Below are positions 20,243 to 25,496 of a DNA stretch of 36,775 nt, piece by piece; the first letter of the stretch is position 1, and each line of letters begins with the position of its first letter. The notes below the pieces were generated by a model that did no database searches, was not told the origin of the DNA, and worked only from the letters and a program-made list of their open reading frames with translations. This stretch comes from Basidiobolus ranarum (lineage: Eukaryota): assembly GCA_040143965.1 (NCBI GenBank), contig JASJQH010000057.1, positions 1 through 36,775 on the forward strand, read 5' to 3'. A program made the position numbers and the translations under genes.

Positions 20243-21808
20243 TTAGATAGCCTTGTGTTCCAACAACATCTCGTTTTGAGGGGGGAGACCAACACAGGCA
20301 CGGAAGACGTTCTCCATAGCCATACGTTGCTTGCTAAGAGCGTTGACAACTGGGGTACCTTGAGGAACCACTGGTGCCTTCAACAAGTAAGAAAGGATGG
20401 AAAGAACGGAGTGGAAAGGAGCATACTCCTCCATCTCAGGGGTCTTGTATTGAATACGAGTCATCAACTCGGTGATGATAGCCAAATCAAAGATCAATGG
20501 GGAGGCCAAAAGTGAGTCTTCACAAGTATTATACAAAGAAATGGTGTTACGACCGTTCATGAAAATCTCACTAACATACTCATCTAAAGCACGCTTGGAA
20601 TCAGACACGGAAGGAACATACTTAATCACAACTACGTGATCAGGATGTTCACCCTTCTTGTAGAGAATGTGGTTGGCAGCAACCATATCATCTACAACAT
20701 TACTCTTAGAAATTTCCTTAGAGCGGAATTGCTCGGGAGCACTGAGGTTCTTACCATCGTTGTTACCAAGATGGTTATAACTGGTAATAGCAATTGGCTT
20801 AATACCAGCGTTGACCAAGAAATCAACAAGGACAGATTTGACCTTGGTTTGACCGGTCTTGAAGTCGTCACCACCAATATAAACTTGATGTTTCTCGGCA
20901 AGCTCAATAACACCAGGAACCAAAGTATTTTGGGGACTACCATTGATGAATGGTGCATTTTCCAAAATAGAAGCGATGGCGAAAAGAGTGGAGGGGGAAA
21001 CTTCGGAGTGACCTTGCTCAACAGCCTTCAACAAGTTTTCAGCAGTATCATTGACTCCATCAATAAGGTCAGCAAAACGCTCAGTGTTGGCAGTCCAAAG
21101 AACAATAATCTTATCAAGATTATTGTTGGCCTTGAAGTCACGGATGTTCTTTCTAAGCTCATCCAATTGCTCTTGGACAGTACCCTTGAGAACATTGTCA
21201 GCACGCTCTTCTTGATTGGCAGCGATGAAAGAGGGGAAATAAACGGAAGGCAATGGCTTCAACTCAGCAAGCTCGTCGTAAAGCTGTCTTTGAAGATCAA
21301 CATCCAATACTTGGGCTCTCTCCATAGACTCGGCAATGTTGGCAGAATTGATATCCCAACCACCAATCACAAAGTCGTTGGGATGAATCATAGGAAGAAT
21401 ATCATTGAAGGGGATAAAGACGTCCTTACCCGACTCATCAATACCAATCTTCAGGGTAGAAGAAAGGACAACGGAGCCGTAGTAGTTGGGTGATTTAACA
21501 CCTTCCTTGGTACGCCATTGAACGTTACGACGATTAGCGAGGATACTAGCGGTAACGGTGGAACCATTGTTTCCACCCCAACCGACAAGCATCAAACCGA
21601 CCTTAGGGACACGGTGATCGGTTTTGAACTTGTAGTTGGTTTCGATAGGCTGGACAATCATCTCGCCCAATTCGTTCTTAGTAACTCTGGTATTTTGGTA
21701 AACATAGTCGGCCAAAATATGACTGTCAGTGTACTGAACATTAGGGGCGTTGACGCGGAAAGCCTTGGTTTCAGGAGCAGGGGTATAGTTGGGAGTAGCA
21801 GGAGGCAT
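20243..21808 (-). CDS. INO1: myo-inositol-1-phosphate synthase
   Basis: [42 protein letters not shown] and TCEDSLLA motifs in an uninterrupted 521-aa ORF. Confidence 0.99.
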
Positions 21809-22763
21809 TTTGATAGCAGTTAAAGTTGGAAGTATTTGGGCTTGATTAGCACTATGGGGATTTCTTTGCTTTAGCGGAAACTCTTTTTCTACCCCTATAA
21901 AATGGTATGAATATTAGCATTTGTCGAATAAACTACTGGTAATGAATAGCAACATACCGGTGCGGATTGTGACGAGAACTTAAAAGGTTAGCGAACGTTG
22001 TTGCAAACACTTACAGCGATGTGGCTGTAAATAGAACTTGGTGCGCTTGGATGGAAGGAGAAGACCTGAATTAGAATTAGAGGTTGGTCGAAAGTTTATA
22101 TAGATCCCGAACACTTGTGGATAATGGGGTGGCTTCTTTCGCAATGTGAAATTGAAGTACAACAGGGCATCTCCCATGATTAAACCCTATAATGAACGGA
22201 ATTTATGGAGGATTGACAAATCGGGGTAAAATGAGGTTCGGCTGGGTATTTCTCCGTTTGGAGATGGGTCTGTGGTGAGGTGAGCTTAGCTTTGGTGCCT
22301 GGGGAGTGAGCTCTTAGCCAATTCATGATTGTACACGCGTTCGATATAGGTTCCTTTAAATTTATCGCTAATAAATATATTACATGTACCTCGAGAAATC
22401 ATTTGTCCTACATTGAATATCGGCCTGTTGATGCTTTTCATTGCTCCGCGGCTTTGACGGCAATATTCGATTTTGTAAGCAAAGAACGATACAAAAGAAC
22501 GATCCATTCTTGTACTACACACATCTTAAAACAGTTAGATAGTAATGATCACGAGTATCAATATGTTGTAAATTGATTATTGGTGGAAAATTATCTCCGG
22601 ATACTATGCCAAGAAACTCCAAAATTTCTAGCTGACTGCTTCTGAAATATGCTTATATGATTGTTCAAATGATATTAACGAACCAGAGAGAAAGCGACAG
22701 ATGTGCAATATCGAGCTTTGCAAATGCTAGGTGCAGTGCTACCACGTAAACCCTAATTAATTT

Positions 22764-22825
22764 CAATTTTTCGGATTACAAAAAACGTGTGGTGCAATTT
22801 CTCGGATTCCAAAAAACGTGCGGTG
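22764..22825. repeat. 31-bp tandem direct repeat (2 copies, 3 mismatches)
   Basis: CAATTTTTCGGATTACAAAAAACGTGTGGTG / CAATTTCTCGGATTCCAAAAAACGTGCGGTG. Confidence 0.88.
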
Positions 22826-22969
22826 CTAATGTTACTCATGTCATTATTGTTGTAATAGGATTAAAATTATTGTGCAAAATTGGTTTTATTTACAAAAATT
22901 ACATCTCCAGATTCTAAATATTGATAAAGATTAGTGATCAAATCATCAATACGTTTAAAATGAATCAAA

Positions 22970-23104
22970 GAATATTCGAGAAATTTGACAATCATCCTCA
23001 TTATGATAAGGACTAGAACATTCAAAAAACTCCATTAATCTAACACCGTTTATCCTTCAATGAAACTCATAGGTTTGAGAGTTTCATCGTACACACATAG
23101 TGTA
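22970..23104 (-). ncRNA. Intronic box H/ACA snoRNA, copy B (3' end uncertain)
   Basis: Lower stem ACACT/GGTGT, pocket ATGTGTGTA/AAGGATAAAC, 11-bp upper stem CGATGAAACTC/GAGTTTCATTG, H box AGATTA at 23041-23036, second hairpin, and a possible AUA box at 22975-22973. Confidence 0.68.
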
Positions 23105-23212
23105 GCACAACATTATTGTTAATGAAGAACGTTACTCACCACAGATGCGAATCCTAAAGAGAAAAATTGTAAGTTGAAGAACACAAAAGAAATGCTTTGC
23201 AAAATAAGTAGG

Positions 23213-23352
23213 AACTGTATGAATAAATTACTATGAGGATATCTTAGGAATCGATATCATCGAAAAGTAATTCAAACAAATAAATCTAGCACCGTTAATC
23301 CTTCAACAAAACTCGTGGGTATTGAAAGTCAAGTTGTACACACATAGTGCTG
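23213..23352 (-). ncRNA. Intronic box H/ACA snoRNA, copy A
   Basis: Lower stem AGCACT/GGTGCT, the same pocket, upper stem CAACTTGACTT/GAGTTTTGTTG, variant H box AGATTTA (23287-23281), second hairpin TGAATTACT/AGTAATTTA plus GATATC/GATATC, and ACA at 23218-23216. About 140 nt. Confidence 0.72.
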
Positions 23353-24326
23353 TAGAATAATATAAATTGTATAGTAAAGAAACTTACCCGGAGTACGGAC
23401 TGATTAAAGCGTGCGGATACTAATCATTGGCACTCGAATCAGATATTTATAGAACTCCAACTATACAATTTCTCATGGGTACACCCTGAATAAAATGGGA
23501 GAATATTTTTATTGGCCAATGAAGTTAGAGAAGACTGATGATTGGATAGTGGTTTGTTTATGCTTTTGATCAGTTTACGTTGAAGCAGCTTTAAACTAAC
23601 ACTTGGTTTTTCCTTATCTCGTTTCAACACGGTTATGTATAAACAGTGGCTGAGTACAACCCTTCATATTATTGCATTGTGTGCATCCTATGCATCGAAT
23701 TCGAGCAAGTCGCAGATCTGTGCATTGTAGTGTGAGTATGCATTTAGTAAATTTAGACATGTAGATAAATTCCAACTCCTTAGAATAATGACATCACTAT
23801 CATGGTGATCAAAAGCGAGAGCAAGGGTGAGAGCAACCAAAATTACCATATAGTAAGCAACTAAATACTTGTTTTAGGGTTGGGTTATGTATATAGGGTT
23901 AGATAGATTATTGATGTTTTGTTAGAGTTCAGTGTGATCTTCGATTGGGAAAAAGCGATGCCGATTGAGGTTTCTATTGTTGTTAATCTATGCGTCCGCT
24001 ATCATCGCAGATACTACATTGTACATTAATATTCAGTGCTATCTCATGAATCAAGAAACGATGCAACATATAGTTTCATAAAGCGTAACTGCCTAGTAAC
24101 CAAATACTTATCTATACCACATTACTTTGTATCAGTGATTACATGGCTTGTCGCCTTTGCAGACGTAATATTCATCTGTCAATGTTTCAAAGATGGGGGA
24201 GTGAGCGATTAAGGGGTTATACAATGAATTGATATAAAGGGATGAAGAAGATGTCAGTTGAAGAGTACCAGAGTCAAGTTCTTCAAGTCTCTTGTGCATA
24301 CTCCCTCTTACATTCTCATCATCATA

Positions 24327-25496
24327 ATGACTGCCTTTATGAACAATATTTCTACTAATTCCAATGGAGGAATTTTGAAAAAGGCATTTATTTTGATGAT
24401 GGCCTCTCCATTGCTTATGTCCAATACTGTTCAGGCTTTACCCTCTCTTGAAAGTAGCGGAGTAATGAAGGCTGAAGACATGGTTGACGGTCGTAGCGAA
24501 TTATTGGGAGCAGAGAATCAAGTGTTTGAGCATCTTTTCAAGAGACAAACCGATCTAGAGAATGTAGAGGGTGTGAGACTGGAGACAGTGAATGAAAAGC
24601 GTGATCTCTATGAGATTGAGCTCTCGGAGGCTGAGGCTGAACTATTAGGGAATCTGAAGAAGTTTGTGCCTGATTTCAAGAAGCTCGCACCACTTCTGAA
24701 GACATATATTCCTCTAATCCAGGCGCACGCTCCCTCTGTTCTAAATCTTTCGGTCAGGGATGCCATTGTCAAGCTTGGCCTTGGTAAGTATCTCAATGTG
24801 GTTGGTCTAGGTGGAGGAGAGTCATCTGGCGGACAGGATGGTGCTGAAGGTTACAGTAAACGTGATCTCTATGAAGTCGAGCTCTCCGAGGCTGAGGCTG
24901 AACTACTCGGAAAATTGAAGAAGTTTGTGCCCGATTTCAAGAAGCTCGCACCTCTTCTAAAATCATACGCACCTTTACTCAGAATGTATGGTCCCTCTGT
25001 TCTAAACCTCACAGTTAAGGATGCCATTGTCAAGCTTGGCTTTGGTAAGTATCTGAATGTGGCTGGTCTTGGTGGGGGCGAGTCATCCAGTGGTCAGGAA
25101 AGTGCTGAAGGATACAGTGGGGGTGAACTCACAAAGCGAGGTGTTAGTGAAGAGTATCCAGAAAAAAAAGAGGAAACTGTTAAGAACCCGAAGGCTAACT
25201 TTTACTCTCAGTTCAAAAAGGTCATTAAGCTCGCGCGTCCTGATAAAGTGTTGACTAGGGTAATTTTGAACTCACGAATAATTGATCTTCTCAAAGTTCT
25301 GAACATCAACCTTGGTCACAAATCGAAAACACACCATGTTGACTATGAGCCAAAGACCACTGACACCAAGCCTAGTTATGAAGCAAAGCCTGATAATGAA
25401 CCAAAAAAAGATGACGAGAAGAAAGCAGGTTCTTATGGCGATGCGGCTCCTAAGAGCCCCTATTCAGCCACCAAGGTTGCAAGCAAGAAGGCTTAA
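24327..25496 (+). CDS. Secreted Kex2-type repeat precursor protein
   Basis: TATAAA at 24233, hydrophobic signal-like segment ending TVQA-LP, four KR sites and two 87-aa repeats. Intronless, with AATAAA after the stop. Confidence 0.85.
   Translation: MTAFMNNISTNSNGGILKKAFILMMASPLLMSNTVQALPSLESSGVMKAEDMVDGRSELLGAENQVFEHLFKRQTDLENVEGVRLETVNEKRDLYEIELSEAEAELLGNLKKFVPDFKKLAPLLKTYIPLIQAHAPSVLNLSVRDAIVKLGLGKYLNVVGLGGGESSGGQDGAEGYSKRDLYEVELSEAEAELLGKLKKFVPDFKKLAPLLKSYAPLLRMYGPSVLNLTVKDAIVKLGFGKYLNVAGLGGGESSSGQESAEGYSGGELTKRGVSEEYPEKKEETVKNPKANFYSQFKKVIKLARPDKVLTRVILNSRIIDLLKVLNINLGHKSKTHHVDYEPKTTDTKPSYEAKPDNEPKKDDEKKAGSYGDAAPKSPYSATKVASKKA
24597..25118 (+). repeat. Internal tandem coding repeat, 2 x 261 bp (87 aa)
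   Basis: Units start at 24597 and 24858, each KRDLYE[IV]ELSEAEAELLG..AEGYS. Many differences fall at third codon positions. Confidence 0.95.

Follow-up and report, generated by a model that had tools for sequence, protein, structure and literature searches.

The animal box H/ACA guide SNORA70 (U70, RF00156) has several paralogues, and its human host gene is protein-coding. The guide is intron-encoded. Pseudouridine 1692 (psi1692) of human 18S rRNA, the U directly 5′ of GUACACACCGCCCGU, is assigned to it in the available part of the relevant study (PMC9610020). In Neurospora crassa, UHG-like host genes (clusters I–V) carry one snoRNA per intron, with canonical splice signals for each snoRNA and only very short ORFs; as far as the accessible sections of that report go, the clusters are box C/D and the H/ACA genes of its Table 2 are mostly intergenic (PMC2780460). 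The survey 'The fungal snoRNAome' describes, in the portion available, an H box ANANNA with highly conserved first and third A, a more variable sixth position and G at position 2 in about 80% of cases, a highly conserved ACA box with rare but known variants at its middle position, and a median H/ACA length of 188 nt, 90% falling within 148–266 (PMC5824354). The available main text of the survey names neither Basidiobolus, Zoopagomycota nor Entomophthoromycotina, and no guide for the 18S site considered below (PMC5824354). A full-text literature search for Basidiobolus together with snoRNA returned nothing relevant.

Here we analyse a 36,775-nt stretch of Basidiobolus DNA (the window, always meant at its full length) in which a locus on the minus strand had been proposed to carry two intronic snoRNAs. 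The reading that we favour, and regard as fairly probable from the sequence, is that a non-coding RNA polymerase II unit has as its only valuable products two paralogous box H/ACA snoRNAs of about 136–141 nt, one per intron. As in the Neurospora hosts, intron signals (GTAAGT/TAG and GTGAGT/TAG) flank each candidate and the exons lack a meaningful ORF; unlike the clusters in the accessible part of that report, the unit holds H/ACA candidates only, these are intronic, and it combines two same-guide paralogues with a 14-nt middle exon in an early-diverging Basidiobolus-type fungus (PMC2780460). The class and the gene layout are thus already known from Neurospora, and the term 'vertebrate-style', applied to the locus in the preliminary description, overstates its novelty, since one-snoRNA-per-intron non-coding hosts are documented in that fungus in the sections available (PMC2780460). 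What is new is the lineage, a host that carries only H/ACA candidates as two same-guide paralogues, and the predicted target.

Organization of the putative host unit

The putative unit and its signals are arranged as follows.

23511..23520, minus strand: palindromic CCAAT element ATTGGCCAAT, read directly, about 60 nt 5′ of the TATA box
23444..23451, minus strand: putative TATA box TATAAATA, sequence read
23388..23420, minus strand: putative exon 1, start guessed about 30 nt past the TATA box, end given by the GTAAGT donor
23154..23387, minus strand: putative intron 1, 234 nt, GTAAGT donor from 23387, then CTTAC and TTTAG, with the TAG ending at 23154
23140..23153, minus strand: putative 14-nt micro-exon 2, GATTCGCATCTGTG, between the TAG acceptor and the GTGAGT donor
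22914..23139, minus strand: putative intron 2, 226 nt, GTGAGT donor from 23139, then ACTAAT and TTTAG, with the TAG ending at 22914
22866..22913, minus strand: putative exon 3, AATAAA at 22890–22885, 3′ end guessed

The TATA box, the 14-nt exon and the poly(A) signal of the preliminary description were all found again on the minus strand, and its statement that the unit has no ORF agrees with the joined putative exons (about 115 nt), in which no ATG-initiated frame exceeds 7 codons. The palindromic CCAAT at 23520–23511 may be a promoter element.

To compare intron lengths, the window was scanned mechanically for GTRAGT..YAG segments joining two open frames, which gave 12 candidates, five of them judged credible. 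These five measured 48–69 nt and had CTAAC or CTAAT close to the acceptor; other likely introns in the window ranged from 48 to 120 nt, so the introns of the host unit, at two to four times the usual length here, are indeed as unusually long as had been claimed. Intron 2 carries a branch-like ACTAAT about 20 nt from its acceptor that resembles the CTAAC/CTAAT of the other introns, and the sequence as read places the donor 36 nt ahead of stem P1 of the hairpin described below in both introns.

The 800 bp upstream of the TATA box contained no convincing coding sequence, its ORFs being random-looking. The next gene in that direction (24246–25496) is on the plus strand and hence divergent from the host unit, and the gene downstream, INO1, has its own TATATAAA and a 5′UTR intron. 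Hence the unit belongs neither to a coding gene nor, as a UTR, to one of its neighbours, and a protein-coding host was rejected on the strength of the random-looking upstream ORFs and the independent signals of INO1. Positions 23451–22870 of the minus strand are probably a short non-coding unit with one H/ACA candidate in each long intron.

A hairpin repeated in both introns

A stretch of about 70 nt is common to both introns, its two occurrences lying 246–247 nt apart, and the remaining intron sequence, including the 3′ halves of the two copies (A in intron 1, B in intron 2), could not be aligned between them. The 14-mer CACTATGTGTGTAC and the 17-mer TTGAAGGATNAACGGTG from this stretch each occur exactly twice in the window, both times here. 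When a covariance model of the hairpin was run over the 36,775 nt with filters off, it recovered the two copies with E values of 8e-27 and 1e-25, the next match having E = 3.1.

We evaluated the hairpin as drawn in the preliminary description, with a P1 of 4–5 bp, an internal loop of 10 + 11 nt and an upper stem of 11 pairs, giving 16 pairs in total. Its claim that the stems covary was borne out: both partners were replaced in two of the 16 pairs (G-C to A-U in P1 and C-G to U-A in the upper stem), and three more changed on one side with pairing kept. Only three of 32 pairing cells were unpaired, namely two U-U in the middle of the upper stem of copy A and the outermost P1 pair of copy B, and the proportion of paired cells was 90.6% as compared with 31–41% when the partners were slid by one to three columns. 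A shuffle control of stem pairing (138/500) is uninformative with only two sequences. The internal-loop strands, described earlier as almost invariant, proved to be so, with one substitution in 21 positions (20 identical) as against 14 in 43 for the stems and apical loop (Fisher p = 0.014).

Several base pairs of the hairpin are G-U when read on the minus strand but would turn into A-C on the opposite one, which indicates that the minus strand is the RNA strand; the plus strand was rejected on account of these mismatches. A search for homologues in metagenome contigs with the pattern CTATGTGTGTA-N(20-48)-GAAGGATNAACGG gave no match, so the covariation rests on two sequences.

H/ACA features of the two candidates

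The elements of the candidates, placed from folds and pair counts, are given below.

23213..23353, minus strand: snoRNA candidate A, about 141 nt
23351–23347/23292–23288, minus strand: candidate A, P1
23346–23337, minus strand: candidate A, 5′ guide strand, with the upper stem starting at 23336
23303–23293, minus strand: candidate A, 3′ guide strand
23287–23282, minus strand: candidate A, AGAUUU hinge
23274–23220, minus strand: candidate A, 3′ hairpin, with ACA at 23218–23216
22970..23105, minus strand: snoRNA candidate B, about 136 nt
23103–23100/23046–23043, minus strand: candidate B, P1
23099–23090, minus strand: candidate B, 5′ guide strand
23089–23079/23068–23058, minus strand: candidate B, 11-bp upper stem
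23057–23047, minus strand: candidate B, 3′ guide strand
23041–23036, minus strand: candidate B, AGAUUA H box
23032–22978, minus strand: candidate B, 3′ hairpin, −14.5 kcal/mol
22975–22973, minus strand: candidate B, possible AUA box, 2 nt past the 3′ hairpin

Both copies fold as hairpin, hinge, hairpin and tail, with a single-stranded hinge between the hairpins, and the folds have modest z-scores of −1.69 (A) and −2.41 (B). The hinge box starts 16 nt past the upper stem in each copy and is followed by the second hairpin, as the preliminary description had it; its letters are AGATTA in B and AGATTT(A) in A. The B box (AGAUUA) matches ANANNA exactly, and the A box (AGAUUU) has U at the sixth position.

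The ACA with which copy A had been said to end was located at the position listed, 62 nt after the hinge box, and an alternative fold of this half with the lower stem UGAAU/AUUCA puts it 14 nt below the top of a possible 3′ pocket. No ACA occurs anywhere in intron 2 downstream of the hinge of copy B, a point that was only implied earlier and is made explicit here. In copy B the AUA follows the H box at a distance of 60 nt, and the upper stem of the 3′ hairpin, whose pocket is tiny, is 16 nt away from it. Between pocket top and box there are 16 nt in each of the 5′ hairpins and for the AUA of B, and 14 nt in the alternative 3′ fold of A; a value of 16 nt is the upper edge of the 14–16 nt range. 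Judged by these landmarks, copy A is close to a canonical H/ACA snoRNA, and copy B appears canonical in its 5′ half with a doubtful 3′ box; reading AUA as that box is a rescue, and we treat it as a possible, candidate box only. The proposal of two paralogous intronic H/ACA snoRNAs thus agrees with every feature that the sequence can test, except that copy B has no canonical ACA.

At about 141 and 136 nt, the candidates are short for fungal H/ACA snoRNAs and shorter than 90% of the fungal snoRNAome set, as given in the available part of that survey (PMC5824354). Comparison with Rfam, one of the checks suggested at the outset, matched no family to either candidate: at the gathering score the window gave no relevant family, SNORA70 included; at E ≤ 10 no family, again including SNORA70 (RF00156), fitted the candidates in 22700–23600 (901 nt) or 23205–23360 (156 nt); and at E ≤ 0.5 no relevant family appeared in the whole window. 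Two kinds of weak match were judged to be noise, namely one to snoU85 at 22765–22844 (E = 0.12) and plus-strand C/D matches at 23222–23299 (snoMe28S-Am2634, SNORD58 and snoR30, E = 1–5), the latter made up of UGAGGA/CUGA-like words in AT-rich sequence.

Predicted target in 18S rRNA

As stand-in rRNA we used 110 metagenome loci with an ITS4 primer site (261,820 nt, both strands), which represent rDNA of other eukaryotes and not of Basidiobolus; the viral contigs contained no ITS4 primer site. The scan sought a U with two-part pairing, in which the sequence 5′ of it binds the 3′ pocket strand and the sequence 3′ of it, beginning after a single unpaired base, binds the 5′ pocket strand. Across loci, the sole recurrent top-ranked site was 18S GCCCTT-TG-TACACACC (in RNA, GCCCUU-U-G-UACACACC), to which both copies would pair through AAGG with CCUU and UGUGUGUA with UACACAC, that is, 4 + 7 Watson–Crick pairs with no offset, directly under the upper stem. 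This site was also the best in the rRNA of locus L036, a complete set with boundaries taken from Rfam, where it lies at SSU position 1676 of 1848, 172 nt from the 3′ end. Forty loci contain the helix-44 core GTACACACCGCCCGTC, and 37 of them have the pairing context; locus L047 is missing among the matches because it has the variant CCGTTTG.

Shuffled guides reached the score of this target in 2/300 (A) and 1/300 (B) cases without offset, and in 9/300 (A) and 12/300 (B) cases, or 3–4%, when offsets of 0–2 unpaired guide bases were allowed. Four of the 11 nt of the 3′ pocket strand pair with the target, the conserved AUWAACG lying outside the proposed pairing. When the 3′ pockets were used as rRNA guides, no convincing target emerged, the best scores being at most 14.5 as compared with 19 for the 5′ pocket site.

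We take the target U to be E. coli U1391 (the U before G1392) and budding yeast U1628, numbering through Cm1639 = C1402, and we know of no pseudouridine at this 18S U in budding yeast. In human 18S rRNA, the bridging oligonucleotide for the reverse-transcription stop of psi1692 starts with GTACACACCGCCCGT in the part of the study available (PMC9610020), from which it follows that psi1692 is the U immediately 5′, the same U that is predicted here. The target U lies directly 5′ of GUACACACC, and the position equivalent to that of SNORA70 was reached as a prediction. The 5′ pockets of both copies are accordingly predicted to guide the same 18S U as human psi1692, which is placed in helix 28, at the neck–head junction, in the accessible text of another report (PMC10227372).

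Supplementary Table 3 of a fission yeast study, as far as available, includes Cm1680 (the equivalent of C1402) and has no entry for the target site at 1669 (PMC4605285). For Chaetomium thermophilum, a nanopore table gives summed psi-plus-C fractions of 0.086, 0.169, 0.353, 0.0001 and 0.011 at 18S positions 1622, 1623, 1624, 1625 and 1626, respectively (PMC12723226), where 1624 is the target U by an offset of −4 that we derived from m7G1571 and m6,6A1777/78. This value hints, if weakly, that modification of the site can occur in a fungus; the main text of that paper does not mention the site (PMC12723226).

Discussion

Under the favoured reading of one H/ACA snoRNA per intron, the host RNA would be transcribed by RNA polymerase II and both introns spliced out, after which the lariats would be debranched, exonucleases would trim them back to the part that Cbf5, Nop10, Nhp2 and Gar1 protect, and the spliced exon RNA of roughly 115 nt would be discarded. 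In the open pocket of the 5′ hairpin, the 3′ strand (AAGG...) would bind 18S CCUU and the 5′ strand (..UGUGUGUA) UACACAC. U-G would then stay unpaired at the pocket's top, so that Cbf5 would convert the U to pseudouridine, at the junction of helices 28 and 44 beside the decoding centre. The 3′ hairpins seemingly would serve structure or stability only, and the pair may have originated by tandem duplication of an exon-plus-intron unit of roughly 247 nt.

The two copies could be genuine H/ACA snoRNAs and yet not be released one per intron, either because an unspliced dicistronic precursor is cut by RNase III and exonucleases, as happens in the snoRNA clusters of budding yeast and plants, or because a single 474-nt intron (23387–22914) is removed with the middle exon skipped. 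The 14-nt exon is extremely short and intron 1 has, with CTTAC, a weaker branch motif than the CTAAC/CTAAT found in other introns, both of which fit this idea, as does the alternative splicing documented for fungal snoRNA hosts in the accessible sections of the Neurospora report (PMC2780460). Each copy, however, comes with a strong donor at 36 nt and with a TAG acceptor and pyrimidine tract of its own, and the chance of two GTRAGT being so placed is low (roughly 1e-3, an estimate and not a computed value), which makes release by either route quite unlikely. Another view is that copy A alone works and copy B is a decaying or non-accumulating duplicate that has lost its ACA box. In this vein, there is no ACA after the hinge anywhere in intron 2, the ACA box is highly conserved in fungi with only rare middle-position variants according to the available part of the survey (PMC5824354), and the 3′ halves cannot be aligned. 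Decay of B is nevertheless unlikely in our judgement, given that the pocket strands were kept at 20 of 21 positions despite diverged stems and flanks with compensating changes, that B has the more regular upper stem of 11 bp and the canonical AGAUUA, and that its AUA stands at the matching place (60 vs 62 nt after the hinge).

The hairpin might also be a conserved structured element of a different kind, for example one that acts in splicing or regulation, binds a protein or gives rise to small RNAs, with the rRNA match due to chance. Such a reading could draw on the lack of any fitting H/ACA model in Rfam, a target duplex of only 11 bp with a GU-repeat guide strand, the 3–4% of shuffled guides that equal the score when offsets are allowed, and the half of the conserved 3′ loop strand that stays idle in the proposed pairing. 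Both copies nonetheless show all the H/ACA landmarks, correctly ordered and spaced, and the best rRNA match, reached without offset, falls on a U known to be a pseudouridine in humans, so that we hold a different element to be distinctly unlikely. Basidiobolus genomes are large and duplicated, a background against which the copies could be functionless fragments of a dispersed repeat or transposon. This last possibility is very improbable: the covariance model of the hairpin finds two copies only in the 36,775-nt window (next E = 3.1), the metagenome search returned no match, and the copies are in tandem at 247 nt within one frame of splice signals and show the substitution pattern of a structured RNA.

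Returning to two snoRNAs with a shared 18S target, the candidates differ from SNORA70 in that they have no detectable similarity to it in sequence or structure (no RF00156 match at E ≤ 10) and lie in a tiny non-coding unit, as opposed to the protein-coding gene that hosts human SNORA70. It is possible, although we rather doubt it, that they are the fungal counterpart of animal SNORA70, in which case the guide would have been present in the ancestor of fungi and animals, been lost in budding and fission yeasts, and perhaps been kept in Chaetomium. The shared site may reflect either common descent or convergence. If the candidates are counterparts of SNORA70, the guide survives in early-diverging fungi as two copies, one with an AUA box, and a decoding-centre modification studied mainly in human cells becomes open to fungal genetics.

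Should the candidates be real, Basidiobolus would have its first described snoRNAs, and the non-coding, one-snoRNA-per-intron design would be seen to reach H/ACA guides of early-diverging fungi. Of greater weight is the predicted target, since a fungal guide for a U that neighbours the decoding centre and is a pseudouridine in humans bears on the age of the modification, and deletion of the 600-bp non-coding locus would provide a simple system for testing its role. Beyond the target, the result is routine annotation of a locus that protein-based gene calling would miss.

Neighbouring genes and other observations

Positions 20243–21913 of the minus strand encode INO1, myo-inositol-1-phosphate synthase (Pfam PF07994 and PF01658), whose product is 93% identical to a Basidiobolus ranarum protein and 88% identical to that of B. 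meristosporus, the next best identity being at most 79%, which assigns the window to an early-diverging fungus of Basidiobolus type. The gene as a whole (20243–22101, minus strand) has its ATG at 21808, an apparent TATATAAA of its own near 22101 and an apparent 5′UTR intron of 120 nt (22014–21895, GTAAGT...GCTAAT...TAG). Between INO1 and the host unit lies a tandem direct repeat (22764–22825) of two 31-nt copies that are 90% identical, reading CACC(G/A)CACGTTTTTTG(G/T)AATCCGA(G/A)AAATTG on the minus strand and situated about 45 nt beyond the host unit's AATAAA, with the start codon of INO1 about 950 bp further downstream. A role as a C/D guide was rejected, as no rRNA complementarity of at least 9 nt was found in locus L036; the repeat could be a regulatory element of INO1 or a terminator.

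On the other side, the plus-strand gene at 24246–25496 is an open frame of 416 codons, divergent from the snoRNA host unit, whose product is without a match in Pfam. About 90 of its residues are duplicated internally (KRDLYE[IV]ELSEAEAELLG.LKKFVPDFKKLAPLLK...GLGGGESS), and its tail is rich in lysine and proline. Among the metagenome rDNA loci, L029 carries a group I intron within its 18S gene (positions 6248–6603; RF00028, 79.7 bits).
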